A DNA stretch of 64,000 bases, from assembly GCA_016181405.1 (NCBI GenBank), contig JACOZJ010000003.1, positions 42,749-106,748 on the forward strand, in the 5' to 3' direction. This DNA is from Candidatus Wildermuthbacteria bacterium. Lineage in GTDB: Bacteria; Patescibacteriota; Minisyncoccia; Minisyncoccales; UBA10102. The position numbers and the translations under genes were made by a program. Below, one piece after another: positions 6,696 to 57,945 of the stretch; the stretch's first letter is position 1, and every line of letters starts with the position of its first letter. Below the pieces are notes generated by a model. It saw nothing but the letters and a program-made list of their open reading frames with translations, was not told the DNA's origin and searched no databases.

Positions 6696-7220
6696 ATGCA
6701 AAAAGGAGTTGTAAGAAAAAGGCGTACTTCCCAGCTGTCCGAATACGGAAAACAGCTGCAAGAAAAGCAGGAGTTAAAGAATCAGTATAACTTGCGGGAA
6801 CGTCAGTTTCGTCACTATATTGAGAATGCGCTGGAAAAAAGCGGCGCTCAAAATGCAGAGGAACAACTTTTGCAGCATTTAGAGAGACGTCTGGATAATG
6901 TGGTGTTTCGTATGGGCGTGGCGGAAACACGCAAGCAAGCCCGTCAGTTAGTTTCTCATGGGCATATTCGGGTAAACGAAAAGAGAGTTCTGGTCCCTTC
7001 TTATCAGACAAAACGAGGCGACAAAATATCCGTTCGCCCGAATTCGCAGGAAAACGTATTTTTTAAAAACCGAAAACTGGCGCTTAAAAAATATGAGTCT
7101 CCAAGTTGGCTAGAGCTTCACAAGGAGAATTTGGAGGCAGAAATAAAAGGTGCGCCGGGGCCGGAGGAAATAGGAGTTACGGTCCAGATTCCTTTGGTTT
7201 TTGAGTTTTATTCCAGATAA
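6696..7220 (+). CDS. rpsD: 30S ribosomal protein S4
   Basis: ...YGKQLQEKQELKNQYNLRERQFRHY...LERRLDNVVFRMGVAETRKQARQLVSHGHI (S4 domain). Confidence 0.93.
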   Translation: MQKGVVRKRRTSQLSEYGKQLQEKQELKNQYNLRERQFRHYIENALEKSGAQNAEEQLLQHLERRLDNVVFRMGVAETRKQARQLVSHGHIRVNEKRVLVPSYQTKRGDKISVRPNSQENVFFKNRKLALKKYESPSWLELHKENLEAEIKGAPGPEEIGVTVQIPLVFEFYSR

Positions 7221-44287: not shown

Positions 44288-46086
44288 ATACGTATGTGAG
44301 TTTTTTGAACAAACGCTTCAAGTTTCATTGCACCAAGGTCACCCTTGCCGCGTTCGCGCACGCTTATTTCATGGTTACTCATTTCTTTTTCTCCAACTAT
44401 GAGTGAATAGGGTATTTTCATTGTTTCACCTTCCCGAATTCGTTTGCCCAGCGTTTCGTTTTCGCCGTTCATGCGAATACGAAAATCTTTATCTGCGGCC
44501 AGAAGTTTTTGCTGAACCTCTTGCGCGTAGCCCGCAAATTTATCCGATACCGGTAAAATCCAAATCTGTTCGGGCGCTAGCCAAAAAGGAAAGGCACCAG
44601 CGTAGTGTTCAATCAAAAACGCAATAAACCGCTCGTGGGAACCAAGAGGAGCTCGATGTATAACATACAAAGGTTTTTCTGAGCCATCCTTATCGCGATA
44701 CGTGAGATTAAACCGTTCTGTCGCAAGAAAATCAAGCTGGTTAGTGGAAGCTGTCTCTTCGCGGCCAATAACGCTTTTAATTTGGAAATCAACTTTCGGC
44801 CCATAGAACGCGGCTTCACCTTCAGCTTCCTGGTAGGGGAGTCCTGATTTTTTCATCGCGCTTCTGATAATTTCAACAGCCTCTTTCCACGCTTTTGGAA
44901 CCCCGGCATACTTTTTCTTGTCTTTTGCCGGCAGCGAAAGCCGCATATAAAAATTTTCAATTCCAAATACTTTTTTGTACCAAAATTCGTGTAGCTGCAT
45001 TACTTTAAGGAACTCTTCTTCTGCCTGTTCTTTGGTGCAATAGATGTGGGCATCGTTTTGCGTAAATCCGCGCACACGCAAAAGCCCAGCTAGGGTGCCG
45101 GAAAGTTCATACCGATATACAGTGCCAAATTCCGCGTAGCGCAATGGCAGTTCACGATAACTATGAGGTTCTGCCCTGTAAATCATATGAGTATGCGGGC
45201 AATTCATGGCCTTCAAATAGTATTTGCCGTCGTCCAATTCCATCGGAGGATACATACTATCTGCATAGTAGGGGATATGCCCAGACATTTTATACAGGGC
45301 TTCCTTCGCGATATGGGGAGTGGTAACGCGCTGATACCCCCATTCTCGCTCTATTTGTTTTGCGCATTTCTCAATTTCTTCGCGGATAATCGTCCCATTT
45401 GGCAGCCAAAGAGGCAATCCAGGCCCAACTTCTGGGGCGAATGTAAATAGCTTGAGTTTTTCTCCAAGCACGCGATGATCCCGTTTTTTTGCTTCTTCTT
45501 GCCGCCAAAGGTAATCATCGAGTTCCTTCTTAGTGGCAAAAGCCGCCCCATACACGCGGGTAAGCATAGGATTTTTTTCATCACCTCGCCAGTAAGCTCC
45601 AGCAACGCTTGTAAGCTTGAAAGCATCAAGCGGCAATTCGCGCGTATTTTTTACGTGCCCGCCGCGGCACAAATCCAAAAACACGTCGCCGGTATATACC
45701 ATACCTACCTTCAAAAATTTTGGATTTTGGATTTTGGATTTTGAGCTTTGCGCTTTGGATTTTACGAGATCTCGGATGAGCTCGAGCTTATACGGCTGTT
45801 TCAGTTTCTTGTAGTGCAACGTTGCCTTAGGCGCTGGCCACAGTTCCCTTTTGAAAGCCAAGTTTTGTTTTGCGATAAAGCGCATTTCTTCTTCGATTTT
45901 GGCCAAATCCGCCTCGGTAATTTTGAGTTTTCCGAAATCATAATAAAACCCGTTTTCAATCACGGGCCCAATTCCCAATTCCACCTTGGGATAGAGCTTT
46001 TTCACGGCCGCCGCGAGCACATGCGCGAACGAGTGCCGCATATTTTCTATAGCTTCTCTGGAACTTTTCGAAGGAATGTCTGCCAT
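44281..46086 (-). CDS. thrS: Threonyl-tRNA synthetase (no N-terminal TGS domain)
   Basis: ...HSFAHVLAAAVKKLYP...CRGGHV...HRAPLGSHERFIAFLIEH...; ATG at 46086. Confidence 0.93.
   Translation of the reverse strand: MADIPSKSSREAIENMRHSFAHVLAAAVKKLYPKVELGIGPVIENGFYYDFGKLKITEADLAKIEEEMRFIAKQNLAFKRELWPAPKATLHYKKLKQPYKLELIRDLVKSKAQSSKSKIQNPKFLKVGMVYTGDVFLDLCRGGHVKNTRELPLDAFKLTSVAGAYWRGDEKNPMLTRVYGAAFATKKELDDYLWRQEEAKKRDHRVLGEKLKLFTFAPEVGPGLPLWLPNGTIIREEIEKCAKQIEREWGYQRVTTPHIAKEALYKMSGHIPYYADSMYPPMELDDGKYYLKAMNCPHTHMIYRAEPHSYRELPLRYAEFGTVYRYELSGTLAGLLRVRGFTQNDAHIYCTKEQAEEEFLKVMQLHEFWYKKVFGIENFYMRLSLPAKDKKKYAGVPKAWKEAVEIIRSAMKKSGLPYQEAEGEAAFYGPKVDFQIKSVIGREETASTNQLDFLATERFNLTYRDKDGSEKPLYVIHRAPLGSHERFIAFLIEHYAGAFPFWLAPEQIWILPVSDKFAGYAQEVQQKLLAADKDFRIRMNGENETLGKRIREGETMKIPYSLIVGEKEMSNHEISVRERGKGDLGAMKLEAFVQKTHIRIW
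45718..45764. repeat. Short repeat family B inside thrS (tttggattttggattttggattttgagctttgcgctttggatttt); encodes KSKAQSSKSKIQNPK on the minus strand
   Basis: 29 of 31 nt match 50671-50700. Includes a TTTTGGA x3 tandem. Confidence 0.75.
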
Positions 46087-46260
46087 AGCCAATTGACTAG
46101 TTATACCACAAAACAAAAACCCCCTCAACAGGGAAGTACCCCAAGCGCTTAAGCCACGGAAAAGTTTGACTTTTTATCGGTAGCGTGTTAGTGTATCGCC
46201 AGCACTTGCTGGTGGGAAAACCCTTAAATTGTATAGCCAGCAAGAAGGAAGGTGGTTCCG

Positions 46261-46545
46261 ATGTCAAAGAAATTCCTGGTAATCTTGGCGCTCGTAGCCG
46301 TCCTGGCGGCCGTATTGGTTCTTCCAGGACAGGGAGCCGACGCACGGCAGAAGCGTTCGGCCTTCCAGGTGACCTCGGTAGGGATACAGCGCTCTGACAC
46401 GGGCACATGGCTAGAGAGCCACGTTGATCTGAATGTGCTGTCCATCCGGATACGGCCGGCCGCAAACCAGGATGGAGTCGCGGTCACTATCGTAGACACG
46501 TCGGGAAACGTCGTCTACGACGGAACGCCAGGCACCAAGAACTAG
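46261..46545 (+). CDS. Hypothetical small secreted protein (94 aa)
   Basis: AGGAAGGTGG SD; MSKKFLVILALVAVLAAVLVLPGQGA is a signal-like N-terminus. Confidence 0.65.
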   Translation: MSKKFLVILALVAVLAAVLVLPGQGADARQKRSAFQVTSVGIQRSDTGTWLESHVDLNVLSIRIRPAANQDGVAVTIVDTSGNVVYDGTPGTKN

Positions 46546-46584
46546 CTCCAGCGCCCTGTAGTAGAAGCACCTAATACCCAGAAA

Positions 46585-46829
46585 CGGGCAGGGCAGGCGA
46601 CGAGAAGTCCAAACCTTCTTTCGCCTGCTCACTCTCATTGAGTGCATCAAGGAATTGGTGGATTCAACAGGAGTTCCAGTACTTTTAAATACACATCCGC
46701 CGCTTCATAGCGGCGAAACGGACATTACCGCAGAAACGCTTAAAACAATTGATTGAAAGAAGTGAAAACGAGTAGTAGTGTTCGTCTCGCCGCTATGGAG
46801 CAGGCAATCTCTCTAAGGAGAAGACATCT
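46585..46829 (+). promoter_or_regulatory. Structured intergenic RNA module, copy 1
   Basis: Stem-loop 46585-46628. Local GCCGC-TTCATA-GCGGC hairpin. CATAGCGGCGA (46706-16) is complementary to TCGCCGCTATG (46787-97). Homologous to the copies at 54346 and 55091. Confidence 0.6.
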
Positions 46830-46871
46830 ATGGAGAACAAATTTGTGGATTTTTATAGAAACAAAACCTGA
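46830..46871 (+). CDS. Possible 13-aa micro-ORF (MENKFVDFYRNKT) downstream of module copy 1
   Basis: AAGGAG SD 8 nt upstream. The stop lies inside the terminator stem. It may not be translated. Confidence 0.25.
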   Translation: MENKFVDFYRNKT

Positions 46872-46893
46872 CAGTTGCTGTCAGGTTTTGTTT
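46863..46893. terminator. Bidirectional terminator aaaacctgacag-ttg-ctgtcaggtttt shared with dnaE
   Basis: Perfect 12-bp stem flanked by A-run and T-run. Confidence 0.75.
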
Positions 46894-49595
46894 TAGGAGG
46901 CTACGATTTCCTCGACTTCTTCGGCGAGGAATTTTTTTTCGCCGTCGCGGCTATCGAGACGACCAGTTACAAACACCATTTTATTTTCTTGCAGAGCGGT
47001 CGGATAGCGCTCGATAACCGAAGGAAACACCACAACCTCGATACGATCGGTTAAATCCTCCAAGGCAACAAAAAGCATGGGTTTGCCACTTTTGGTAATA
47101 ATTCTTTTCACCGAAGAAATAATACCTCCAATGCGCAAGCGCTCGCGTTGCCGGCTAAACTGAAACTTGTATCGCGTATTTTGAATCTCCTGCACCGCCT
47201 CTTGCAGCGAACGGATCGCCAGCGCCCTACTTTCCAAAATGTTTTTGATCGCTTTCAAAGGATGAGAAGTTACATATAATCCCAGCAATTCCTTTTCCCA
47301 TAGCAAAAGCTCTGACTCTTTTGCGGGTTCTGTAGCTTCCAGCACGAGTGAAGAGTGATTCTGTTCTGCCGGCTGGCTGTCGAACAAGCCTTTTTGCCCG
47401 TTGGCTTTTGTTTTCTGATTTTCACGCGCAACGGTAAGCAATCGCTCCATGTTTTTTAGGAGCTGGTTACGCTCGCCGAACTGATCGAATACGCCGGCTT
47501 TTACCATGCTTTCCATCGATTTCTTGTTCAAATCTTTTGTTGCCACGCGGGTCACAAAATTTTGAATCGCCAGATAAGGGCCATCTGCCTTACGTTCTTG
47601 AATAATAGACGCCACAATCCCTTCGCCCACGTTTTTGATGGCCAATAGCCCAAAGCGAATCTGATTTTTTGCCGGCACGGCAGAAAAAAAGGCGAAGCTC
47701 TCGTTTACGTCGGGAGGCAACACTTCAATACCCATTTTTCGCGTTTCCTCAATCAAGAACGCGATGCGTTCAACATCGTTGCGTTCCGAAGTTAGAAGAG
47801 CAGACATATATTCCAAAGGATAGTTCGCTTTAAGCCACGCGGTTTGGTAGGCGATGGTGGCGTAGCACGCCGCATGGCTCCTATTGAAACCATAGCTCGC
47901 GAAAGGCTCAATAAAATCAAAAACACTCTCCGCGATTTTCTTTGAAGTTCCAGCTGCGACTGCTCTCTCCACAAATTTTACTTTTTGCTCCTCTAAGAGC
48001 GTCTTTATTTTTTTCCCAATGGCCTTGCGGAGAATGTCTGCCTCTCCATAGGAAAATCCGGCGAGTTCACGCGCTATCTGCAGAATTTGTTCCTGGTACA
48101 CGGCAATCCCATACGTATTGCGTAAAATGGGTTCTAGTTTTGGATGCAAATACCGAATTTCTTTTTCTCCATGCTTGCGGGCAATATAGTCGGGTATAAG
48201 TTCCATCGGACCTGGCCGATAGAGCGCAACCATGGCAATAATGTCTTCAAACTCGGTTGGCTTCAATTCTTTTAAGTATCTTCTCATCCCGCCGCTTTCC
48301 AGTTGGAACACCCCGGTTGTATCGCCCGCCTGCAAAAGCTTGTACACTTTTGGATCATTCAAAGGGATAGTATCGATATCAATATTTTTGCCGCGAATGG
48401 CGTATATGCGCTTGAGTGTTTCTTCAATAATGCTCAAGTTTTTCAGCCCCAAAAAATCCATTTTTAAAAGGCCGATGTCTTCCACGCTGTGCATTTCGTA
48501 TTGGGTAACTATCGCCTCATCGTTTTGCGTGGGGTGCTGCAAAGGCACGCGCGTATCCAAGGGTTCTGCCGCAATCACCACCCCGCAAGCGTGCGTGGAA
48601 GCGTGCCGCGCGACACCCTCGAGCTTTTTGCCCAAATCAATTAAACGTTTGGCTTTTTCATCTTCCTCGTATAGAGCTTTGAATTCATCCACTTGCTCCA
48701 ATGCTTCCTCGAGCGAAGAACCAAAGGGAATCAGTTTTGCCGCGCGGTCACAGTATCCATACTCATATTCGAGCGCGCGCCCTACATCGCGTATCACGGC
48801 GCGCGAGGCCATTGTTCCAAATGTAATAATTTGCGCCACGCGATCCCGCCCGTATTTTTGAGCCACGTATTCTATAACTTCGTCGCGCCTTGTGTCTGCA
48901 AAATCCAAATCAATGTCCGGCAGAGAAACGCGTTCTGGATTCAAAAATCGCTCGAACAAAAGTTTATAGCGAATAGGATCAACGTTTGTAATCTTGAGCA
49001 AGTACGCCGCGATAGATCCAGCGGCAGATCCGCGGCCCGGCCCCACCACAATGCGGTTTTGCTTTGCCCAGTTCACAAAATCCTGCACAATTAAGAAGTA
49101 GGCGGCAAATCCGGTTTGGAGAATCACGTCGAGCTCATATTCCAGCCGTTTTACAGCATCTCCCGAATCGGTGTATTGCGGCTTTTCCTTCAACCCCTCG
49201 TAGCAAAGTTCGCGGAGATATGCGTCGGCAGTTTTCCCTTCAGGAAGAGGAAATTTGGGCAAAAGATTTTTCCCAAGTACAAGCTCCAGATTGCAGGCTT
49301 CGGCTATGACTTGCGTATTTGTTAAAGCTTCTGGAACATCTTTGAAAAGCTCTGCCATTTCTTCTGCGCTTTTTAACGAGAAATCATCATGCTTGAGCGT
49401 CAGGCGTTCCTCATCGCTATTCTTCGCCCCGGTATTAATAAGCATTAAAATATCCTGTGCTTCTGCGTCATCTTTTCGCAGATAGTGCGAATCGGCGGTT
49501 GCCACCAACGGAATACCAGTACGCTTGGAAATTGCAATCAATTCTTTGTTTACTGTTTCTTGTTCTTTGATATTCGGATGATTCTGCAGCTCCAA
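46893..49595 (-). CDS. dnaE: DNA polymerase III alpha subunit, main body (from ...YLELQNHP onward)
   Basis: ...ELQNHPNIKEQETVNKELIAISKRTGIPLVATADSHYL...PGPMELIPDY... In this frame the homology extends upstream to IFGKGNYY, but the only in-frame start is a TTG. Confidence 0.85.
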   Translation of the reverse strand: MELQNHPNIKEQETVNKELIAISKRTGIPLVATADSHYLRKDDAEAQDILMLINTGAKNSDEERLTLKHDDFSLKSAEEMAELFKDVPEALTNTQVIAEACNLELVLGKNLLPKFPLPEGKTADAYLRELCYEGLKEKPQYTDSGDAVKRLEYELDVILQTGFAAYFLIVQDFVNWAKQNRIVVGPGRGSAAGSIAAYLLKITNVDPIRYKLLFERFLNPERVSLPDIDLDFADTRRDEVIEYVAQKYGRDRVAQIITFGTMASRAVIRDVGRALEYEYGYCDRAAKLIPFGSSLEEALEQVDEFKALYEEDEKAKRLIDLGKKLEGVARHASTHACGVVIAAEPLDTRVPLQHPTQNDEAIVTQYEMHSVEDIGLLKMDFLGLKNLSIIEETLKRIYAIRGKNIDIDTIPLNDPKVYKLLQAGDTTGVFQLESGGMRRYLKELKPTEFEDIIAMVALYRPGPMELIPDYIARKHGEKEIRYLHPKLEPILRNTYGIAVYQEQILQIARELAGFSYGEADILRKAIGKKIKTLLEEQKVKFVERAVAAGTSKKIAESVFDFIEPFASYGFNRSHAACYATIAYQTAWLKANYPLEYMSALLTSERNDVERIAFLIEETRKMGIEVLPPDVNESFAFFSAVPAKNQIRFGLLAIKNVGEGIVASIIQERKADGPYLAIQNFVTRVATKDLNKKSMESMVKAGVFDQFGERNQLLKNMERLLTVARENQKTKANGQKGLFDSQPAEQNHSSLVLEATEPAKESELLLWEKELLGLYVTSHPLKAIKNILESRALAIRSLQEAVQEIQNTRYKFQFSRQRERLRIGGIISSVKRIITKSGKPMLFVALEDLTDRIEVVVFPSVIERYPTALQENKMVFVTGRLDSRDGEKKFLAEEVEEIVAS

Positions 49596-49972
49596 ATAAT
49601 AATTCCCTTTGCCGAATATATGTAATAGAAACCGTCCAGGTGGGCGCGAGTTAAGAGTTTTACGATATTTTGATATCCCTTTTCGTTTTTAGCTAGAAGA
49701 ATCAAATGGTAAATTGTGTCGTCCACGCCTGGACGCTTGTCTGCCATACTTTCAAACGCCAAATAAATTTCGCATCCCAAAATAGGTTTAATGCCTTTTG
49801 CTTTCGCTTTTTTGTAGAACTCCACCGCGCCATAGAGGTTGCCGTGATCGGTTAGAGCCACCGAGTTCATGGTAAGCTCCTGCACCCTATCCAAAAGCTG
49901 GTCTATTTTCGGCAGACCATCGAGAAGCGAGTAGTGAGAATGGACGTGTAAGTGAGTAAAGCTTTGCCCCAT
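49550..49972 (-). pseudogene. dnaE: dnaE N-terminal PHP-domain fragment in a different frame (frameshift plus internal deletion relative to intact DnaE)
   Basis: MGQSFTHLHVHSHYSLLDG...LLAKNEKGYQNIVKLLTRAHLDGFYY, then out-of-frame junk. It overlaps the main ORF by 46 nt. Confidence 0.7.
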
Positions 49973-50011
49973 AGGTATGTATAATTCTATCTCGTTTGGT
50001 ACAATATCTCA

Positions 50012-50614
50012 ATGCAGAAAATTATCGTTGGCATAGATGAAGCTGGTCGAGGCCCTCTTGCGGGCCCGGTGGTGGCAGCAGCGTTTTGCGTGGTGGGAAA
50101 ACCGAAATTTCGGGCGATAGGGGATTTCGACTCCAAAAAACTCACACCCCAATGGCGGGAAGATTTATATCAAGTTTTTACCTCTCATCCGCAAATAGAA
50201 TGGGGGATAGGGCAAGTTTCAGAAAAACAAATAGACAAGATAAACATTCTCCAGGCAACCCGCCTTGCCATGAAAAAGGCGTTTTACGGGTTGTTTCGAA
50301 AACTGCAAAACAAGGGAGTAACACCAAATCTTCTCATTGTGGATGGAACATCTCTTCTTGATATTCCCATATCCCAAAAAGCGATTCCGAAGGCAGATGC
50401 CACGATATTTCCATGTATGGCGGCTTCCATTATTGCCAAAGTTACCCGCGACCGCCTTATGCTCAAACTTCACGAAAGATATCCTGTCTATGGCTTTGAT
50501 CGTCATAAAGGATATGGAACCAAATTTCATCTACAAGCGCTGGCGCGATTTGGACCCTGTACAATCCATAGAAAAAGCTTTTCACCAATCTCCGATGTCT
50601 TAAAATCCAAATGA
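50012..50614 (+). CDS. rnhB: Ribonuclease HII
   Basis: ...VGIDEAGRGPLAGPVVAAA...DSKKLT... Confidence 0.92.
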   Translation: MQKIIVGIDEAGRGPLAGPVVAAAFCVVGKPKFRAIGDFDSKKLTPQWREDLYQVFTSHPQIEWGIGQVSEKQIDKINILQATRLAMKKAFYGLFRKLQNKGVTPNLLIVDGTSLLDIPISQKAIPKADATIFPCMAASIIAKVTRDRLMLKLHERYPVYGFDRHKGYGTKFHLQALARFGPCTIHRKSFSPISDVLKSK

Positions 50615-50700
50615 CAAAATCCAAATTCCAAAATAAATTACAAATACAAATATATAAATTCAAAACCTGTTTTGGATTTTGAGCTTTGAGTTTTGGATTT
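50602..50700. repeat. Repeat family B, intergenic imperfect inverted pair (aaaatccaaa...aaatccaaa / tttggattttgagctttgagttttggattt) around an AT-rich core
   Basis: Read directly from the sequence. The left arm overlaps the rnhB stop codon. Confidence 0.7.
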
Positions 50701-50743
50701 ACACTCTTGCAGAAAATACTCTTTTCTGCTAGAGTAGGGCATT

Positions 50744-51037
50744 ATGGCGGTTCCAAAACAACATCGGTCAAAATCGAGGCAAGGGCAGCGAAGAATGCAT
50801 TTGTTCATCAAGAACCTTAAACTGGTCGCCTGCAAAAAGTGCGGAAAACCAGTTTTGCCGCATACGCTTTGCGAAAACTGCGGAACCTACCGGAGCAAAA
50901 CATTCCTCGACGTCCTTGCGAAACTCACCAAAAAAGAACGGAAGCAGAAACAAAAAGAATTGGCGGCGCAGGAGGAGCATCCGCCAGCTGGCGGACAGTC
51001 GAAGGATTTAAGCGCAGAAGAGTTATCTAAGCGGTAA
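50744..51037 (+). CDS. rpmF: 50S ribosomal protein L32 with a Lys/Glu-rich C-terminal extension
   Basis: MAVPKQHRSKSRQGQRRMH...CKKCGKPVLPHTLCENCG... Confidence 0.9.
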   Translation: MAVPKQHRSKSRQGQRRMHLFIKNLKLVACKKCGKPVLPHTLCENCGTYRSKTFLDVLAKLTKKERKQKQKELAAQEEHPPAGGQSKDLSAEELSKR

Positions 51038-51040
51038 ACC

Positions 51041-51517
51041 ATGGCTAGCCGGCACCTTGCGCGTTCCATAGCAATGCAGTCCTTGTACGAATGGGACTTT
51101 TACGGCAAGCAAAAGGAATTGGCAGAAACGGTAGAACGCAATATCAAAGAGTTTGGTCCGGGACTGGAAGAAGGAAATAAGGACTTCGTGCGGCGGCTCG
51201 CCTTAGGCGTACGTGAAAATCTGCAGTCGCTCAACGCCATTATTGAAAAGGCGGCGCCCGAATGGCCGCTGGATCAAATAACTCTTGTAGACCGTAACGT
51301 ATTGCGCCTTGGCCTTTATGAACTTATCTACGGCAACAAAGAAGAAGTGCCGCCCAAGGTGGCAATTAACGAAGCAATCGAACTCGCGAAAAACTTTAGC
51401 GGCGAGTCCGCGGGCAAATTCGTCAACGGAGTGCTAGGCACCGTATTTCGCGAATTAGAAGCAACGCAATCCACCGAAAGCCCAAGGGGCATTCAGGCGG
51501 ACCCGCCTCAATCCTGA
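51041..51517 (+). CDS. nusB: Transcription antitermination factor NusB
   Basis: ...[17 protein letters not shown]...[12 protein letters not shown]...[10 protein letters not shown]... Confidence 0.88.
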
Positions 51518-51543
51518 GGTTTGGGCGGGCAACAACCACAATT

Positions 51544-52233
51544 ATGAGTTTATCATCACTCGAAAAGGCACTCGACATTTCATTCAAAAATAAAGACTTA
51601 CTCCAGCAAGCATTCGTTCACCGTTCGTATCTCAACGAAAATCGAGACTTCCATCTTCAACACAATGAAAGGCTCGAGTTTCTGGGAGATGCGGTGCTCG
51701 AACTGGTTGTTACCGAATATCTCTACTCAAAGTACCCCGATAAGCCGGAAGGTGAACTTACTGCCTGGCGCGCCGCGCTGGTAAACACCAAAATGCTTTC
51801 TTCCATTGGCAGGGAACTGAACTTTAGCGATTACTTACTGCTCTCGCACGGAGAGTCAAAAGAAGAAGGCAAGGCAAGAGACTATATTCTGGCAAACACG
51901 GTAGAAGCATTCATTGGTGCCTTATTCCTTGACCAGGGCTTGAAAAACTCCGGAAAGTTTATTACAACATATATACTGTCCAAACTTAAAGAAGTGCTGG
52001 AGGACGAACTATTTTTAGACTCAAAATCCCACTTCCAAGAATTAGCGCAGGAAAAAGCGGCCATTACCCCCACGTACATCGTATTAAAGGAATGGGGGCC
52101 TGACCACGCGAAGCATTTTTACATCGGCGTATATCTGGATAAAGAACTGGTGGCACACGGAGAGGGCTCTTCCAAGCAGGAAGCAGAACAAAACGCAGCC
52201 AAAAATGCCCTCGCGGAGAAAAACTGGAAATAG
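51544..52233 (+). CDS. rnc: Ribonuclease III
   Basis: ...NERLEFLGDAVLELVVTEYLY... plus a C-terminal dsRBD (KSHFQELAQ...). Confidence 0.93.
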   Translation: MSLSSLEKALDISFKNKDLLQQAFVHRSYLNENRDFHLQHNERLEFLGDAVLELVVTEYLYSKYPDKPEGELTAWRAALVNTKMLSSIGRELNFSDYLLLSHGESKEEGKARDYILANTVEAFIGALFLDQGLKNSGKFITTYILSKLKEVLEDELFLDSKSHFQELAQEKAAITPTYIVLKEWGPDHAKHFYIGVYLDKELVAHGEGSSKQEAEQNAAKNALAEKNWK

Positions 52234-52241
52234 TAAATATT

Positions 52242-52706
52242 ATGTTAACAATTCGTTTATTTCGCGTAGGAAGGAAAAATCAGCCGGCGTTTAAGATTGT
52301 CGTCTGCAATAAGCAAAACGCCGCTTCAAGGGGACGCTTCGTGGAGGAAGTGGGTTTTTACGATCCCTTAACTAAACAGCGCAACCTAAAAGGGGATAGG
52401 GTAAAATACTGGTTATCCGTAGGCGCAAAAGCTTCTCCCACGGTTCACAATATGCTTGTGACAGATAAAGTGGTGGAAGGCTCCAAAATCGCCAAACACA
52501 AACTCTCCAAGAAGCCTGCCTCGCCAGCAGGGGAGTCTGTAGCGTCTGAAACAAACCAAAGCGGGAAGTCAGCCGATACGGCCCCGGAAGCACCAAAAGC
52601 CCAGGAATCAGCTCCACAAAGCGCTCCTGCTCAAGAAACCACCCCTGAAGCGCCAAAACCCGCTGAAGAGCCTAAGCCTGCCGAAACGCAGGAAAAACAG
52701 CCTTAA
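52242..52706 (+). CDS. rpsP: 30S ribosomal protein S16 with a Pro/Ala/Glu-rich C-terminal extension
   Basis: MLTIRLFRVGRKNQPAFKIVVCNKQNAASRGRFVEEVGFYDP... Confidence 0.93.
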   Translation: MLTIRLFRVGRKNQPAFKIVVCNKQNAASRGRFVEEVGFYDPLTKQRNLKGDRVKYWLSVGAKASPTVHNMLVTDKVVEGSKIAKHKLSKKPASPAGESVASETNQSGKSADTAPEAPKAQESAPQSAPAQETTPEAPKPAEEPKPAETQEKQP

Positions 52707-52770
52707 AGCTCAAACTCCTCAATTCTTGTCCCGCCGTAGCTTTAAGCCAAGGCGGATAGCCTTATACACT

Positions 52771-52795
52771 CCCACCAACCCTTTGGTGGGTTCTT
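52771..52795 (+). terminator. rpsP terminator cccacca-accctt-tggtggg plus TTCTT
   Basis: 7-bp GC stem followed by a short T-run. Confidence 0.5.
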
Positions 52796-52822
52796 GACAT
52801 TTTTGGGGAAGTATGCTATACT
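52794..52822 (+). promoter_or_regulatory. Consensus promoter TTGACA-N17-TATACT
   Basis: Perfect -35 element, 5 of 6 in the -10 element, 17-nt spacer. Confidence 0.65.
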
Positions 52823-53164
52823 GTGGCTAACAATAAAATACTGGTTTTGCGGGTGGAAGGAGAGAGCCACCGGCAAATAATAAAGACACAGACGATTGCA
52901 CATATCACAATTACCCAATCAGCTCTCCCCAAAAGGAGAGTTGGTTGTTTAGAGAATGTCCTGCCTCTGCGAATATAAAGATACTCCCGGAGGTAGCACA
53001 TTCAAAACATCACAGCACCTTAACCATCAAGCAAGGGGGAAGAGGAACAGAAAATTCTTCCCCCATACCCTTCAGCCCACCACGAGTATCGAATGGCGAA
53101 TTGAAGGGTAACGATAGCACCCAAAAATTTCCTTCCTGTAAAGGGAAGGGGAAAGGAGAGAGCC

Positions 53165-53275
53165 ATGGTGCACCGACCTCCACGCCCGGAGACGGTGATG
53201 ACGCTTCCGCTGCCGCGTTGCGGCTGCGGGGCACGCATCGCCCCGGGTGGCTACTGTACTGGAAAGTGCAAGTAG
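53165..53275 (+). CDS. Cys-rich micro-protein (36 aa: MVHRPPRPETVMTLPLPRCGCGARIAPGGYCTGKCK)
   Basis: Translated by hand. GGAAAGGAGAGAG SD 3 nt upstream. CxC...CxxxC pattern. Confidence 0.45.
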   Translation: MVHRPPRPETVMTLPLPRCGCGARIAPGGYCTGKCK

Positions 53276-53283
53276 CCCTCAAC

Positions 53284-53388
53284 GGAGTCGGAGGAAAAGC
53301 ACTCATTGATTGCACTCATAGCATACTCTCCGACTCCTTAAGTTTAAGACCGTTGCGAAAAGCGCAGATCATAGATTTAAGGAGTCGG
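53284..53388 (+). promoter_or_regulatory. Three-segment alternative-hairpin element (1:2 versus 2:3)
   Basis: ggagtcggag (53284-93) pairs with ctccgactcc (53328-37). ccgactccttaa (53330-41) pairs with ttaaggagtcgg (53377-88). The two pairings are mutually exclusive. Confidence 0.5.
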
Positions 53389-53420
53389 ATAGATTGCGCA
53401 CCTTATGAAAGGAGGACGCC

Positions 53421-53606
53421 ATGGAAAGGCTCAATCAATCCCAAATCCGGGCCGCCCATTGGAAGATTGGAGTGAGGGGACCCGTAAACGGGTTACTCAC
53501 TCCAAGGAAACTCGCCCGGGTTTACGGAGTTAGTCCGAGCGAGACAAGAATCATCGTGTTGTCGGTATTCGTGTACCGCGCGCGGGAATGGCTTTGCCCC
53601 CGATGA
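53421..53606 (+). CDS. Small putative helix-turn-helix protein (61 aa)
   Basis: AAAGGAGG SD; ...LTPRKLARVYGVSPSETRIIV... looks like an HTH. Confidence 0.5.
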   Translation: MERLNQSQIRAAHWKIGVRGPVNGLLTPRKLARVYGVSPSETRIIVLSVFVYRAREWLCPR

Positions 53607-53872
53607 GAGCGTGCACAATCCCAGCAACCAAGCCCTGGCCCTGCGAGATCTACCAAGATTTCGCAGGGCACCCCAACTGAATCCCGAATTCATTTCGAGA
53701 TTCAACAGGGGTTAGTACATAAAAATCCATTCGTCTTCAGCGATTTGGCCAAGGCACTTGACTGAATCGTTGGAGACGAGAAGTATGGTGAGATGCGATT
53801 CGTCGAAGACCTCTTCTTGAGTGTCGAAGAACGACAAAGAAAACTCACGAAGAGTGCCAAGAAAGGCAGAAA

Positions 53873-54307
53873 ATGTCTATGTCTATACCGACGATGCTGG
53901 CGGGGCTGGCGGGGCTGGTGGTAGCGGGGATGCTGGTGGGGATGCTGATCTCCATCATCGTATGGACGGATCGGCGCCCGTCGTTCAAGACCGTGTTTGG
54001 TTTCAAGCCTCAGAACCGCAAGAGGCCTTGGTCGTCAGCGCTTCGTGCAGCGGAACAGAAAAAGGTGGCTACTGTGCTGAGTCGGTTAGCACAGACCTTT
54101 GCCACGTGCGACAAGACCGAGAGGGAGATGAAGATTGAACTCCCTGCGGATGGGGAGTTCGAGAAATGGCATACGGAACAGCGTAAACGCCTCGCGGATT
54201 TGAGGCGGGAGCTGAAAACCGCGAAGGAAGGTTTCTGGCGGGCCTATGCGCTCGCCGAGAAACAGGAATTCAGTGTACAGCGGAAGTACACTGACTACCT
54301 CCCCTAG
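53873..54307 (+). CDS. Hypothetical membrane-anchored protein (N-terminal TM helix, charged coiled C-terminus)
   Basis: MSMSIPTMLAGLAGLVVAGMLVGMLISIIVW... Preferred over the overlapping 53821-54138 frame. Confidence 0.55.
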   Translation: MSMSIPTMLAGLAGLVVAGMLVGMLISIIVWTDRRPSFKTVFGFKPQNRKRPWSSALRAAEQKKVATVLSRLAQTFATCDKTEREMKIELPADGEFEKWHTEQRKRLADLRRELKTAKEGFWRAYALAEKQEFSVQRKYTDYLP

Positions 54308-54345
54308 CGCGACCACTAAGTAGAAGGATGCGTCTCACCACGCAT

Positions 54346-54578
54346 TCTGGGCGGGAGAACAAAGGTTCAATCCCTTTCTCTCCCGCCCCCATACTTGAGC
54401 TCATGAATAAGTTCGTGGGCTGAAGAGTGGATAGCACTTTCAAAACTACAGCCGCTTCATAGCGGCGAAATGCCCTTCCGTAGCTTTATGCGAAGGAGGA
54501 CAGCTCGCTGCTATGGAAAGCGGCCTTCCGTAAACCCTCACCCTCAGCAAAAGGAGAGGTAGGAAGAGGAGAACAAGA
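54346..54578 (+). promoter_or_regulatory. Structured intergenic RNA module, copy 2
   Basis: Stem-loop 54346-54389 with a TTCAATC loop followed by CCA. GATAGCACTTTCAAAAC box. CATAGCGGCGA (54458-68) pairs with TCGCTGCTATG (54505-15). Confidence 0.6.
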
Positions 54579-54962
54579 ATGACCATGAAATCTTTCGCGG
54601 CATTGGACTGGACGTTTTCAGGCCCGGCGCGCCGGGTTACTCTCGAGTTCCCGTGCGAGACCCCTGAGGAGGCGCGGGTCCTCCTGCGGGCGGAGCATGA
54701 GGCCCGCAAGGACAAGGCATTGGAGGAAATCAAGGCCCATCCCCGCATGAAGCAGATTGGATGGGCAGGGGATCACGTCACTCCGGTAATGGGGCCCGTG
54801 CCCCCTTGGGAGGATTCCCGGTACCCAGGGTCCCTCTGCGTCGGCATCCCCAACGTGGATGCCGAGGTCGGGGTCCAAGTCGGATCCGGGATGGGAGAGA
54901 CGGACCGGATATACCGCATTGAGGCGGTGCCGGGGGGCGGCACGCGCGCCGTGCGTGTCTGA
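54579..54962 (+). CDS. Hypothetical protein (127 aa)
   Basis: GGAAGAGGAG SD; no recognisable motif. Confidence 0.55.
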   Translation: MTMKSFAALDWTFSGPARRVTLEFPCETPEEARVLLRAEHEARKDKALEEIKAHPRMKQIGWAGDHVTPVMGPVPPWEDSRYPGSLCVGIPNVDAEVGVQVGSGMGETDRIYRIEAVPGGGTRAVRV

Positions 54963-55090
54963 CGCAAGAGAAGACCAGGCTGGGGGTGAAGCCGGCCAAA
55001 AAGAATAGTTTCCCAGTATCATGAAACTGGGGGCGCTGACCACGGCGCCATACAGCAGTGGGAGGTCGTTCTGCCCGAGGCGGAAGGACC

Positions 55091-55366
55091 TAAGGCGAGA
55101 GAGGAAGGTTAATCCCTTTCTCTCCCGCCCCATACTTGAGCTCATGAATAAATTCGTGGGCTGAAGAGTGGATAGCACTTTCAAAACCACAGCTGCTTCA
55201 TAGCGGCGAAATGAACATTTCCGTCTCATCGACGGATATGCCGACGAGGCATAAACCAGAAACGCTCAAGATGCATGAAAGAAATGATTTGGAGTGGAAA
55301 ACAGAGTTAGTGTTCAGCTCGCTGCTATAAAGTGGCAAATCTTGAGCCTGAGAGCAGGAGGAGAAC
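55091..55366 (+). promoter_or_regulatory. Structured intergenic RNA module, copy 3
   Basis: The first ~120 nt are about 95% identical to copy 2. ATAGCGGCGA (55200-09) pairs with TCGCTGCTAT (55319-28). The insert shares blocks with copy 1. Confidence 0.6.
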
Positions 55367-55561
55367 ATGAAAAAAAACGCCTTGTCGACGATCTTCCTAG
55401 TCGGTTTTTCCCTCGTGGGCGCTTTCGGGGGCGCCCTCGGAGGGGTCAGTGTCAGCGCTCTCATTGGTATTAACCCAAACACTGCCGCCCTATGGGGCGG
55501 TATCGTCGGTGCCATCGCTATGACGGCGGTGGCGGTCCTCAGCATCAATAGGTGGAAATAA
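55367..55561 (+). CDS. Glycine-zipper small hydrophobic protein (64 aa)
   Basis: GGAGGAG SD; ...LVGAFGGALGGVSVSALIG...LWGGIVGAIAMTAVAVL... Confidence 0.65.
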   Translation: MKKNALSTIFLVGFSLVGAFGGALGGVSVSALIGINPNTAALWGGIVGAIAMTAVAVLSINRWK

Positions 55562-55591
55562 AACGCAAGGAGATAACCTTTCGTGCAATAA

Positions 55592-55640
55592 GGTAGGGAG
55601 GCGAACGGTTCTATTCCGCTTCCTCCCTACCACTTTCTTG
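55592..55640 (+). terminator. Stem-loop ggtagggagg..cgg-ttctatt-ccg..cctccctacc, same architecture as the module stem-loops
   Basis: 10-bp stem, internal loop, 3 bp and a 7-nt loop, followed by ACTTTCTT. Confidence 0.5.
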
Positions 55641-55731
55641 CGTACAGCTGTGATCTACTCTCTCCTCCGCCTCACCGGCGGATCCATCATAGCTGTACAC
55701 AAGAGAGAAATACTTTTCCACTTCTCAAATA

Positions 55732-55759
55732 TTGACAGGATGGCACGCAGTGCTAGACT
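55732..55759 (+). promoter_or_regulatory. Promoter TTGACA-N16-TAGACT (TG immediately upstream of the -10 region)
   Basis: Read directly from the sequence. The track ORF 55732-55935 begins at the TTG of this -35 box. Confidence 0.55.
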
Positions 55760-55944
55760 ATCCTAATTTCACAGCATGCACCCTCGAACGTGATGCGGAA
55801 ATGGGGGATGGATTGGCAAGGAGTATTGATTCTTTGGCAATCCCGTCCCTGTTTCGTACCACAATTCAGCGGCAGGGAGGAGAGGAGGTACAACTTGAAA
55901 GTCTAAAATACAAATCAACGCGTTCTTTTTCATAAACGAGGAGG

Positions 55945-56097
55945 ATGACGATGCAATCGAATAGAGGGAGAATCCGGGGATGCCTGGGTCAGACCTATGC
56001 CTCTCCGATTCAGCCGAAGCGCTTTCGGCCGCAGCGCCCCCGCGCGTCGCATCGCCGGAAGCCCATCGTCAAGATCATCCTGATCTCCAACACGTAA
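55945..56097 (+). CDS. Highly basic 50-aa protein (MTMQSNRGRIRGCLGQTYASPIQPKRFRPQRPRASHRRKPIVKIILISNT)
   Basis: Translated by hand. GAGGAGG SD. An 11-bp stem hairpin follows at 56121-56157. Confidence 0.45.
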   Translation: MTMQSNRGRIRGCLGQTYASPIQPKRFRPQRPRASHRRKPIVKIILISNT

Positions 56098-56172
56098 CCT
56101 CGTTGGCGCCCGATAACCCCAACAACCCCTCGGATTGTGGTACATCCGAGGGGTTCATCATTTGTGTGGGGG

Positions 56173-56200
56173 TTGACACTATTTTTTGATCGTGTATACT
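56173..56200 (+). promoter_or_regulatory. Consensus promoter TTGACA-N16-TATACT
   Basis: Read directly from the sequence. Confidence 0.6.
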
Positions 56201-56206
56201 CAATCG

Positions 56207-56342
56207 TACATAAATATGAACTCACGCTATCTTTTCTGCATGTGTCTTTGTGCCAGCCCAGAGAAGAGTCTGCGTGTTTCGCGTTAAGACATTTTGTTAT
56301 TTGAAACCAGCCAGCCTCTTCTCTTCAGGGGCTGGTTTTTTG
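56207..56342 (+). ncRNA. Candidate ~135-nt sRNA bracketed by a consensus promoter and a strong terminator (contains an SD-less 23-codon ORF)
   Basis: Promoter at 56173-56200. Terminator aaccagcc...ggctggtt plus TTTTT at 56305-56342. Confidence 0.4.
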
Positions 56343-56419
56343 TAGCTTGGCAGAGACTCAAAACCCATTGTGCGTCTCTGCCAGGAAACAATCCTGGAAT
56401 ACAGAAAGGAGAAAGGGAA

Positions 56420-56740
56420 ATGGCCAGAATAATAGGAGTGTTTGAAGGCCCAACTTCCCTACAGGAAGTCTTCGGCAGAAACGTGCCGAACAGAAGGTCT
56501 TTTGAATCGTACGAAGACCTTCTCAAAGCCCTCAAGGAGGGGCTGCTTGACGGCATCGTCATACCGGAGAATCTCGTCAGCAGAACTTTCGTGGCAGCGC
56601 AAATGGGGTTGATACAGTGCGTGCGTGGATTCGCGTATATCAAGCCGTCGCTCGAGATACGGGTCCGCCGCGCGCGAAGCCGCATGCACGAACGCCGCGC
56701 TTGGCGAGAGTATACGCCGCCCCGGCGCCTTCCCTGTTAA
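56420..56740 (+). CDS. Hypothetical 106-aa protein resembling the N-terminal part of a prephenate-dehydratase or periplasmic-binding-protein type-2 fold (fragment?)
   Basis: AAAGGAGAAAGGG SD; MARIIGVFEGPTSLQEVF...SFESYEDLLKALKEGLLDGIVIPENLVS... Confidence 0.45.
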   Translation: MARIIGVFEGPTSLQEVFGRNVPNRRSFESYEDLLKALKEGLLDGIVIPENLVSRTFVAAQMGLIQCVRGFAYIKPSLEIRVRRARSRMHERRAWREYTPPRRLPC

Positions 56741-56759
56741 CCTGCACCTTACAACGTAG

Positions 56760-56792
56760 AAGCCCCGCCTTTATGGCAGGGGCTTTCTTTTT
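56760..56792 (+). terminator. Intrinsic terminator aagccccgcc-tttat-ggcaggggctt plus TTCTTTTT
   Basis: GC stem with one bulged A, followed by a T-run. Confidence 0.65.
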
Positions 56793-56796
56793 GGGG

Positions 56797-56825
56797 TTGA
56801 CAAACCCGAGAGACAGAAATAACAT
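56797..56825 (+). promoter_or_regulatory. Promoter TTGACA-N17-TAACAT upstream of khpA
   Basis: Read directly from the sequence. Confidence 0.5.
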
Positions 56826-56869
56826 AAAGAAAAGTCGAATAGCAGAAAGTTACAGAATTCAGAATTCAA

Positions 56870-57178
56870 ATGGCAGAAGAGACACCTCAGTACCAAGCAT
56901 TGCTCGAGTATATCGTGAAATCCTTGGTGGACAATCCGAACGACGTAACGGTAGAACGCAAAGTAGATGAAATGGGCGTACTGCTTTCTTTGAAAGTGCA
57001 CGCTCAAGACATGGGTCAAATAGTCGGCCGACAGGGTTCTACCGCGCGAGCAATTCGCACATTGGTTCGCATCGCGGGCCTCAAAGCTCACGCACGGGTA
57101 AACCTCAAGATTGAAGAGCCAGAAGGCGGCCGCGGCCCCCGAAAGAGCGAAGAACCTCTTGCGGGGTTGAACATCTAA
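56870..57178 (+). CDS. khpA: KH-domain RNA-binding protein (KhpA/YlqC, UPF0109)
   Basis: ...LLEYIVKSLVDNPNDVTVERKVDEMGVLLSLKVHAQDMGQIVGRQGSTARAIRTLV... Confidence 0.88.
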   Translation: MAEETPQYQALLEYIVKSLVDNPNDVTVERKVDEMGVLLSLKVHAQDMGQIVGRQGSTARAIRTLVRIAGLKAHARVNLKIEEPEGGRGPRKSEEPLAGLNI

Positions 57179-57243
57179 ACGAAAATTAGAACTTGAAATC
57201 TGCAAGAACGGTGTTACGATAGGGTAATGCCGTTTTTGTTTAT

Positions 57244-57945
57244 ATGAAATTCGATATCATCACCATATTTCCGCAAATTTTTGATTCCTATTTTGCCGAG
57301 TCACTTTTGAAACGCGCCCAAGAAAAAAAACTTCTTGAGATTCGCGTACACAATCTGCGCGATTGGACCGAAGACTCCCACAAAACAGTGGACGACAGCC
57401 CATTCGGCGGGGGATTGGGAATGGTAATGAAAATTGAGCCGATCTACAAGGCCGTAATAGGCCTAAAGTCTCAAGGATCAAACTCCAAGGCCCAAGCAAA
57501 CCCTAAGTTTCCAAACCTCAAACAACGCGTTATCCTTTTCACGCCGAGGGGAAAGAAATTTACGCAACGAAAGGCGCACGAATATGCAAAGCTCGACCAA
57601 CTTATTATGATCTGCGGCCGATACGAGGGAGTCGATGAGAGAGTAGGGAAGTATATTGCAGACGAGCAACTCTCTATAGGGGATTATGACTTAATGGGTG
57701 GGGAGCTTCCTGCAATGATTGTAGTGGAAACTGTTTCGCGCTTAATTCCCGGCGTTATTGGCAAAGAAGAATTTCTGAAAGAGCATATAAAAGATGGGGG
57801 ATTTATAGAATATCCACAGTACACGCGGCCTGAAGTATTTGTGGATGCAAAAAGGAAAAAACGAACTGTACCACAAGTATTGCTATCCGGAAATCACAAA
57901 AAAATTGAAGAGTGGCGGCAAAGACACGAAAAGCTCATCAAATGA
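57244..57945 (+). CDS. trmD: tRNA (guanine37-N1)-methyltransferase
   Basis: MKFDIITIFPQIFDSYF...DDSPFGGGLGMVMK...CGRYEGVDERV... Confidence 0.93.
   Translation: MKFDIITIFPQIFDSYFAESLLKRAQEKKLLEIRVHNLRDWTEDSHKTVDDSPFGGGLGMVMKIEPIYKAVIGLKSQGSNSKAQANPKFPNLKQRVILFTPRGKKFTQRKAHEYAKLDQLIMICGRYEGVDERVGKYIADEQLSIGDYDLMGGELPAMIVVETVSRLIPGVIGKEEFLKEHIKDGGFIEYPQYTRPEVFVDAKRKKRTVPQVLLSGNHKKIEEWRQRHEKLIK
57464..57525. repeat. Possible degenerate family-B-like insertion in trmD (encodes KSQGSNSKAQANPKFPNLKQ)
   Basis: Extra loop relative to the usual TrmD ...AV....VILLSP... spacing. The peptide resembles the thrS insert. DNA similarity is weak. Confidence 0.35.

Follow-up and report, generated by a model that had tools for sequence, protein, structure and literature searches.

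The 64-kb stretch of DNA analysed here (the window), through which we sampled the genome of an uncultured groundwater bacterium, Candidatus Wildermuthbacteria (Parcubacteria, Patescibacteria), raises the question of how one short A+T-rich repeat comes to lie both inside thrS, which encodes the threonyl-tRNA synthetase ThrRS, and in the spacer between rnhB and rpmF, and whether an extra peptide in TrmD has the same source. The ThrRS and TrmD encoded here show 100% identity to proteins of a metagenome-assembled genome assigned to Candidatus Wildermuthbacteria. An earlier note on this DNA had proposed a repeat family with a unit of 31 nucleotides (nt). Our comparisons indicate that the family is real and widespread, with copies in coding as well as noncoding DNA: heptad palindromes, built of units of ~7 nt, are common in Patescibacteria, and related forms occur in Omnitrophota and other phyla. 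The 31-nt unit did not stand, being one arm of a palindrome of ~103 nt. The features on which the argument rests are the following.

44281-46128, minus strand: thrS (Pfam)
45712-45765, minus strand: in-frame heptad array in thrS, encoding VKSKAQSSKSKIQNPKFL (translation and codon layout)
45718-45738, plus strand: perfect tandem (TTTTGGA)3 in thrS, (AAAATCC)3 on the coding strand
45732-45762, plus strand: copy of the T-arm core, TTTTGGATTTTGAGCTTTGCGCTTTGGATTT, in thrS (29/31 match to the spacer)
46893-49595, minus strand: dnaE (Pfam)
50012-50614: rnhB (Pfam)
50598-50700, plus strand: complete heptad palindrome in the rnhB-rpmF spacer (profile E = 4.9e-12)
50598-50650, plus strand: A-rich arm of the spacer element
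50664-50700, plus strand: T-rich arm of the spacer element
50707-50735, plus strand: promoter-like TTGCAG-17 nt-TAGAGT of rpmF, context outside the repeat (read from the sequence)
50744-51037: rpmF (Pfam)
57244-57945: trmD (Pfam)
57466-57525, plus strand: decayed, G+C-enriched heptad array in trmD, encoding KSQGSNSKAQANPKFPNLKQ (period-7 signal)

Related copies in the window

A repeat search of the window paired 45732-45762, in thrS, with 50670-50700, in the spacer, at 94% identity (29 of 31 bases). The match is the one that the earlier note had reported, and the (TTTTGGA)3 extension of the thrS copy was confirmed with it. The longest exact stretch common to the two copies is 19 nt; the 13-mer TTGGATTTTGAGC occurs exactly twice in the window, and TTTGGATTT occurs 14 times (1.8 expected), with 9 of the 14 in the thrS and spacer loci. 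Missing from both copies is the same stretch of ~11 nt of the family consensus, CTTGATTTGAC. Identity at a lag of 7 nt reaches 0.66 for thrS, 0.56-0.57 for the arms of the spacer element, and 0.44 for trmD, over a background of 0.25 +/- 0.06, and at a lag of 14 nt it is 0.61 in the thrS tandem and 0.40 in trmD. When the 64 kb were scanned by regular expression for runs of A3-5N1-4 units, the heptad loci and two ordinary Lys/Glu-rich stretches were the only returns, and shuffled sequence gave none. An assembly artefact was considered and rejected, as the thrS insert is also present in independent NCBI, Logan, and JGI assemblies.

It could be argued that the copies are unrelated, each an independent A+T-rich slippage product, and that their likeness is convergent low complexity. 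Units of the form A3-4N3-4 span a small sequence space, the 19-mer used below to sample the family also occurs by chance in unrelated coding genes (e.g., in Chryseobacterium and a phage), and the trmD DNA has no significant match to the family profile (E = 0.35). However, unrelated arms of the heptad class share an exact stretch of at least 19 nt in only ~0.5% of pairs, so the 19-nt match exceeds what a low-complexity grammar by itself would give, and the internal deletion common to both window copies speaks against convergence as well.

The spacer element, ~103 nt long and A+T-rich, occupies most of the space between rnhB and rpmF, and its positions 50599-50698 align with model positions 6-111 of the profile. 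Its arms form an imperfect hairpin (-21.9 kcal/mol, z = -2.2). The earlier note had described the spacer copy as forming an imperfect inverted pair, with one arm overlapping the stop codon of rnhB, which is borne out: the TGA at 50612-50614 falls within the A-arm unit AAATGAC, and the final codons of rnhB (LKSK) come, with the stop, from the A-rich arm. RNase HII of the syntenic relative L131 stops earlier, at ...SFAPVSRM*. At the other end, 6 nt separate the T-rich arm from the promoter-like -35 box of rpmF. The hexamers of this promoter-like sequence score under the threshold of the promoter scan; its geometry recurs in L135 (TTGCAT-17-TATGCT) and L134 (TTGCAT-17-TATACT). Its -10-like hexamer lies 8 nt before the ATG (50744), as it also does in L135 (~1765-1800), a placement that suggests a leaderless or nearly leaderless L32 mRNA.

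At the element itself, the promoter scan gave weak promoter-like matches inside the A+T-rich arm only, and a terminator scan of 50300-51000 gave zero terminator-like sites. We therefore rejected its identification as a canonical promoter or as an intrinsic terminator (a short G+C-rich stem and then a T run); ordinary terminator-like sites are enriched elsewhere (41 in the region versus 25.5 expected). The element lies upstream of the -35 box of rpmF in the window, apparently within the 5' leader in L131, where the array stands directly 5' of the rpmF ATG, and is absent from L134 and L135. Contigs of the closest TrmD relative lack the upstream synteny and so provide no rnhB-rpmF spacer for comparison. 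On our preferred reading (below), the spacer copy amounts to no more than a weak A-U hairpin placed after rnhB and ahead of the promoter of rpmF.

The heptad-palindrome family

We sampled the family with the exact 19-mer TTTTGGATTTTGAGCTTTG in one genome per species. Among the matches listed, the 19-mer is found at more than 119 loci of these species-representative genomes, and the repeat is thus not specific to the source genome. The hosts, again among the matches listed, include Saccharibacteria, Parcubacteria groups, Roizmanbacteria, Gracilibacteria, and others within Patescibacteria and, beyond them, Omnitrophota, Schekmanbacteria, Elusimicrobia, Bacteroidota, Anaerolineae, Planctomycetota, and Leptolyngbya. 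Misbinning of metagenome-assembled genomes (MAGs) may inflate this list of phyla (e.g., a 1.8-kb contig labelled Bathyarchaeia); several of the non-Patescibacteria genomes carry copies on multiple long contigs.

The flanks of the 19-mer were not selected by the search, yet they have a common layout of A-arm, short A+T-rich loop, and T-arm. The family element is an imperfect palindrome of ~100-125 nt, with ~7-8 units of A3-4N3-4 in one arm and their imperfect complement in the other. The consensus A-arm reads AAAATCC AAAATCC AAAGCTC AAATGTC AAATC AAATCC AAAATCC AAATGTC AAAA and the T-arm TTTT GGATTTT GAGCTTT GAGCTT GATTT GACATTT GGATTTT GACATTT GGATTT. Many Patescibacteria copies begin with TTAAAATCC and end with a GGATTTTAA-like sequence; the window subfamily ends differently. 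A profile hidden Markov model built from 19 Patescibacteria copies and searched against ~1 Mb of retrieved loci gave 131 matches at E < 1e-6. The same DNA reversed gave none, so the profile sees a specific sequence and not mere A-tract spacing. Seventy non-overlapping, near-full-length copies were listed, some of them without the 19-mer, and density reaches 3-4 copies per 8 kb (L043, L049, and L100 of Omnitrophota; L062 of Patescibacteria).

A metagenome scan with a 29-nt pattern of the window variant found 18 contigs. On five of them (L138, L139, L142, L143, and L150) an element of ~103 nt aligns end to end with 50598-50700, A+T-rich centre included, between flanks unrelated to the window. 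Three of these elements lie upstream of pth-like (L138 and L142) and tuf-like (L139) genes, names that derive from N-terminal sequences only. In L101, another member of Wildermuthbacteria, a short version follows a rodA/ftsW-like gene (named from its terminal sequence) and is followed by TTGACA-17-GATAAT. The open reading frames (ORFs) of nine metagenome contigs, including L138-L143, and of L101 have no orthologs in the window. Because the full-length alignment stops at unrelated flanks, the ends of the element are defined and its location varies from genome to genome. That the whole spacer element aligns elsewhere, its non-heptad centre included, and that the reversed-sequence control points to recognition of a specific sequence leave convergence very improbable in general and, where the copies in thrS and the spacer are concerned, largely refuted.

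Full-length copies with defined ends and unrelated flanks are also what a mobile element would leave, that is, one resembling a transposable element of the miniature inverted-repeat type (MITE) or a Rickettsia palindromic element (RPE), moved in trans by an enzyme and inserted in thrS, in the spacer, and, earlier, in trmD. The density of some genomes is consistent with mobility, as are the genome-specific variants shared by copies in the same genome (e.g., the two L062 copies) and the many housekeeping genes that hold in-frame copies. Presence/absence polymorphism is seen at the 3' junction of thrS, where a full element that lacks the 19-mer (E = 4.9e-14) is found in L125; thrS and the next gene overlap in the window, L121, and L122, with no element between them. 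However, the copies in coding sequence consist of one arm or of a bare tandem array instead of the whole element, lengths and ends are fuzzy, the inspected ends have no consistent target-site duplication, and the same ThrRS loop holds other unit types in relatives, which fits turnover in place. No transposase was identified, though no systematic search for one was made. A viral scan returned 10 matches, nine of them to one unrelated phage gene and one to a heptad arm only, and phage carriage was rejected. We consider it unlikely that transposition in trans accounts for the family.

Two further observations concern individual copies. The L125 element (2005-2105) replaces the last ~17 codons of thrS, so that the C terminus becomes ...TIGQLNVKIQMSNDKLNPKFK* and the next gene is separated. 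G+C-rich hairpins (GCCCGCC...GGCGGGC) are nested in heptad arms in L041 (~4170-4230), L088 (~5290-5340), L112 (~6985-7040), and L114 (7490-7620), where a second repeat type appears to have been inserted.

Judged by simple ORF heuristics for gene calls, on which all context statistics here rest, ~87 of the 122 matches listed lie outside ORFs of at least 100 amino acids (aa). The family hairpins measure 80-170 nt with 30-60 pairs, and their neighbouring genes are co-directional in 44 cases, divergent in 9, and convergent in 6. Such copies might be functional cis elements, either as sites of ~7 nt for a single-strand nucleic-acid-binding protein (of the cold-shock-domain, S1, or CsrA-like kind) or as hairpins between cistrons by which mRNA stability, termination, or the coupling of translation is set, with the coding copies as by-products. 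In favor of such a role, arm sequences are conserved over Patescibacteria beyond A-tract periodicity, elements often reach from a stop codon to near the next start with a GGA unit at Shine-Dalgarno distance, a -35 box directly adjoins the T-arm in the window as well as in L101 and Omnitrophota, and the TAACTGA heptamer repeats offer a published parallel (PMC4679880).

The folding evidence runs the other way. RNAalifold found 0 consensus base pairs in 30 copies, because A-tracts oppose T-tracts while the 3-4 variable nt of units that face each other are in many cases noncomplementary, and the two strands are equal, the sense strand folding better in 16 of 30 copies (p = 0.66). Searches of Rfam 15 matched only tRNAs in the window, with nothing at the element, and at eight canonical loci gave only plant miRNA-precursor matches far below threshold, which are generic long hairpins. 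Given that RNAalifold and Rfam are both negative, the conserved feature is the arm sequence with its ~7-nt spacing and not a covarying RNA structure. The spacer orientations reveal no evident preference, the position relative to the rpmF promoter varies between the window and L131 and the element is missing from L134 and L135, and the genome has ordinary promoter-like and terminator-like signals, none of them called at the element. A cis-acting function thus strikes us as unlikely.

Probable turnover of arrays inside conserved enzymes

The 19-mer is read in other genomes in all three frames (QSSKSKI, KAQNPK, and KLKIQN). Hosts confirmed by Pfam are an IleRS/ValRS-type class I synthetase, LeuRS, MurB, two MiaB-like enzymes, RpoC, WecG, MazG, iPGM, and O-antigen ligase. 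In the ORF-internal matches (35 among the matches listed), the A-rich strand is sense in ~24 and the T-rich strand in ~7; in the latter, one frame contains a stop, and the peptide encoded would be rich in F/W/I/L.

In the window, the earlier note's description of the thrS copy as an extra loop in frame is upheld by translation, by comparison with the Staphylococcus aureus ThrRS structure 1nyq, and by 120 orthologs. The 31-nt match encodes KSKAQSSKSKIQNPKF. A 7-nt unit read in frame yields a 7-residue period, (AAAATCC)3 passing through all three frames to give K-S-K-I-Q-N-P and AAAATAC giving K-I-Q-N-T-K-Y. The insert is one arm plus the tandem and not the whole palindrome, with a partial match to the profile (E = 7.7e-4), and the folding of its mRNA does not surpass that of shuffled sequence (z = -1.3). 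Located in the editing (N2) domain, it adds 14 residues relative to 1nyq. In the AlphaFold model its first part prolongs a helix and the remainder is coil, with a pLDDT of 62 in the block 111-120, versus 89-95 in the preceding blocks and 80 after. The segment from LIxDL to KVGMVYTG is hypervariable, ranging from 3 to >40 residues across the 120 orthologs, and KAK alone fills it in many Parcubacteria. The loop DNA of the window and of its relatives (percentages are ThrRS identity to the window protein) reads as follows.

Window: AAATCC AAAGCGC AAAGCTC (AAAATCC)3 AAAATTT
L121 (94%): first half as in the window, then AAAATCC AAAATAC ATTC (AAAATTC)3; 18 nt longer
P0004 (91%): heptads absent
L125 (81%): (CAAGGTT)n
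L131 (77%): CTAGATAC TAAATAC AAAATAC TAAATAC
L136 (76%): (A[AG]ATAC)n
L135 (76%): (AAAAACT/AAAAACC)n

A history of array turnover and copying between loci would fit these loops better than a single insertion of a fixed element. They also bear out, with the L125 element at the 3' end of thrS, the earlier suggestion that copies are polymorphic among related genomes.

The array in trmD consists of the units AAGTCTC AAGGATC AAACTCC AAGGCCC ... AAACCTC, and its period-7 level is reached by just 7 regions of the 64 kb. It adds 14 residues relative to the S. aureus TrmD structure 3ky7, and residues 79-90 are modelled as coil with a pLDDT of <50. The earlier note had claimed an extra peptide with weak DNA similarity to the other copies, as we find. 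Its statement that other TrmD proteins have no such insert is correct for solved structures and fails for Parcubacteria, many of which have heptad peptides in the loop after AVxxLK (e.g., KFKIQNPKSKINSKSKIQK, KSQIPNPKSQTNPKFKILKSK, and KSEIRNSKSETNSKFQNPKSK), with others lacking the insert (KIKNSK). In a relative with 84% identical TrmD, the loop DNA is AAATCC AAAATA AATACT AAACAC AAAATATT AAATACG and the peptide AAATCCAAAATAAATACTAAACACAAAATATTAAATACG. We read the TrmD insert as probably an older, diverged array of the same kind and not as a recent copy of the thrS/spacer sequence. The ortholog comparison that the earlier note had proposed for ThrRS and TrmD gives the same result for both, in that inserts are present in some orthologs and lacking in many.

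A separate observation concerns trmD of a Wildermuthbacteria-related MAG (L134, CAYZNF010000002.1, 840-1515), which is called as two ORFs with the frame switch exactly inside the heptad-type loop; the change of frame reflects an error in sequencing or else a frameshift that slippage at the repeat induced.

The thrS loop of L131 shares 17 exact nt, CTAGATACTAAATACAA, with the rnhB-rpmF spacer of L131, in a unit type unlike that of the window, and L136 has three ATAC-type arrays within 8.5 kb (in the thrS loop, in a second ORF, and in a palindrome just before a start codon). The longest common substrings measure 11-38 nt (TCC type) and 8-17 nt (TAC type) within a lineage, compared to 4-10 nt between lineages and 6 nt between orthologous thrS loops. 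Paralogous arrays that are more alike than orthologous ones bear the signature of concerted evolution, and a unit type that is common within a genome and differs between related genomes points to copying between loci.

The reading toward which we lean, and which we think has somewhat the better chance of being correct, is that these are minisatellite-like arrays shaped by slippage and inter-array copying, with selection as a filter and the protein inserts as tolerated passengers. Units of ~7 nt would slip during replication, and gene conversion or template switching would copy stretches nonreciprocally from one array to another within a genome; selection would merely filter the outcomes. Coding copies could persist if the A-rich strand is sense (largely stop-free and encoding K/S/Q/N/P/T), if the added length preserves the reading frame, and if they lie in a disordered loop at the protein surface or where a gene ends. 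The inserts would then be flexible basic loops, tolerated and probably neutral. Their status as passengers is suggested by their absence from solved structures and from many relatives, by a model confidence below that of their flanks, and by variation even at 94% identity. In this genome, the process may have left a complete copy in the spacer, half a copy with (AAAATCC)3 in a surface loop of ThrRS, and an older, decayed array in TrmD. Slippage with inter-array copying also fits better than cut-and-paste transposition.

Several points weigh against this account. The evidence for slippage and gene conversion is indirect, and the neutrality of the inserts is inferred. Concerted evolution rests on three lineages, and recurrent insertion of each lineage's own element into a hot-spot loop would give the same pattern. 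The 64-kb window holds just two clear loci and trmD, and sampling by an exact 19-mer biases what looks canonical. Elements often span the spacer from a few nt after the stop codon to a few nt before the next start, and this stop-to-start filling could reflect a function in expression. Conservation of the arms across distant lineages is hard to obtain by neutral slippage alone and hints at a binding factor or a copying machinery. Because arm conservation and stop-to-start placement are unexplained by neutral slippage, the binding or regulatory reading and the mobility reading stay alive; slippage, regulation, and mobility are not mutually exclusive. More speculatively, and with a still smaller probability than either, the arrays might be the footprint of an unrecognised trans-acting system of Patescibacteria, Omnitrophota, and other uncultured phyla that binds arrays of ~7-nt units or copies and homogenises them. 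Were this so, a lineage-specific, genome-wide "unit code" would mark gene boundaries, and the system would repeatedly write new basic loops into aminoacyl-tRNA synthetases, TrmD, RpoC, and MurB.

Other features of the region were observed along the way. The dnaE gene (46893-49972, minus strand) is split, with a 140-aa PHP-domain ORF (49550-49972) overlapping a 900-aa ORF (46893-49595) by 46 nt; in relatives it is a single gene of 1,061-1,080 aa, and the split is a frameshift, an assembly error, or real. The dnaE stop is followed immediately, at 46861-46893, by a hairpin CCTGACAG-ttgc-CTGTCAGG that has T runs on either strand and resembles an intrinsic terminator of the ordinary bidirectional kind. 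A family of palindromic, G+C-rich motifs, GCCGCTTCATAGCGGCGAAA, occurs at 46699-46801, 54387-54482, 55128-55223, and 52727-52760, including an inverted pair (46702-46728 and 46775-46801) downstream of dnaE; it is probably the G+C-rich, "pheT-type" element of the earlier note. At 54387 and 55128, an 86-nt direct repeat (97% identical, 741 nt apart) coincides with ORFs without a Pfam match. A G+C-rich repeat with 9-nt periodicity (GCTGGCGGG-like) at 53878-53947 would encode a Gly/Ala-rich peptide if translated. Directly 5' of the khpA start, at 56850-56870, (CAGAATT)2 followed by CAAATGG forms a small heptad array of another unit type. RNase HII of L135 (1794-3572) has 592 aa and faint Pfam matches to intein and LAGLIDADG families, which suggests an intein in that rnhB.

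Comparison with known repeat systems

The heptad-palindrome family is apparently undescribed, being absent from Rfam 15 and from the literature searched, in which literal sequences match PCR primers only and keyword searches give no description in Patescibacteria. In the small genomes of Patescibacteria, with their very short spacers, a repeat occupying many of those spacers from stop to start is a notable feature of genome architecture. It also offers a simple route from noncoding repeat to protein, as a 7-nt unit read over three frames gives a 7-residue K/S/Q/N/P period and the outcome is lineage-specific loops in otherwise highly conserved enzymes. Alignments, gene callers, and phylogenies based on orthologs can be led astray by heptad loops and spacers, and the lineage-specific unit types are possible markers of strains or lineages. 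A factor that binds or copies the arrays, should there be one, would amount to a new system of regulation or mobility in bacteria that are poorly understood.

The closest likeness in proteins is to the RPE, which Ogata and colleagues reportedly described in 2000 between genes and in frame in housekeeping proteins of Rickettsia. Both are dispersed palindromic repeats found in spacers and as in-frame, hydrophilic surface segments that leave the protein intact, and the thrS and TrmD inserts are indeed in-frame surface copies in conserved proteins that many orthologs lack. In contrast, RPEs are inserted as whole palindromes and are not known outside Rickettsia, whereas thrS received no whole palindrome and the coding copies here are single A-rich arms or bare tandem arrays in several phyla. 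The heptad element is, moreover, built of ~7-nt units and behaves like a minisatellite.

In its units, the family resembles heptamer repeats, of which the cyanobacterial STRR are an example. In Beggiatoaceae, Cyanobacteria, and Bacteroidetes, TAACTGA heptamers are found a short distance upstream of start codons (MacGregor 2015, PMC4679880); S1, Csp, and CsrA have been proposed as their binders, and CspB is reported to bind at one protein per heptamer (PMC4679880). Like those repeats, the heptad palindromes have 7-nt units, lie mainly between genes and often a few nt from a start codon, in some cases overlap stop codons or ORF ends, and are scattered through distant phyla by no known mechanism of transfer. 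Tandem direct 7-nt repeats are present here too, as (TTTTGGA)3 and, in relatives, as (AAAATTC)3, (CAAGGTT)n, and (A[AG]ATAC)n. The units, however, are different (AAAATCC, AAAGCTC, AAATGTC, etc.) and degenerate (A3-4N3-4) instead of exact, and two opposed arms form an imperfect palindrome. TAACTGA, on one of its strands, gives a stop in every frame; the A-rich strand of the heptad palindromes, by contrast, is mostly open and occurs within core enzymes.

Heptanucleotide simple-sequence repeats that control hmw expression in Haemophilus influenzae are, according to PMC12721329, likewise tandem 7-nt units, situated in the promoter or 5' leader, whose number varies by slippage. As portrayed there, they are exact, restricted to one locus, and serve phase variation, in contrast to the dispersed, palindromic arrays in essential genes considered here. 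Because the arrays sit in essential genes, frame shifts of the phase-variation type would be lethal. In TIGR arrays, a unit of 36 nt that has conserved edge and loop repeats recurs in tandem next to a Nop-domain Tas gene (PMC12045711); we rejected a TIGR-Tas identity in view of the ~7-nt units, the single dispersed copies, and the lack of a Nop-domain Pfam match in rnhB, rpmF, thrS, and dnaE.

The small bacterial repeats REP/BIME, ERIC/RU, and Correia, reviewed by Delihas (PMC3184786), with intragenic RU copies described separately (PMC2759123), share with the heptad palindromes the short imperfect palindrome, the occurrence in co-directional spacers, the many copies, the genome-specific variants, and the occasional intragenic copy. 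REP sequences, though, are 20-40 nt long, G+C-rich, and RAYT-linked, compared to an A+T-rich, internally periodic element of ~100 nt here, and MITEs have terminal inverted repeats and target-site duplications, for which no consistent counterpart to the duplication was seen. Overall, the heptad palindrome lacks defining features of the RPE, of the TAACTGA/STRR heptamers, and of REP-type repeats and, as no clear target-site duplication was seen, probably also of MITE- and ERIC-type repeats.

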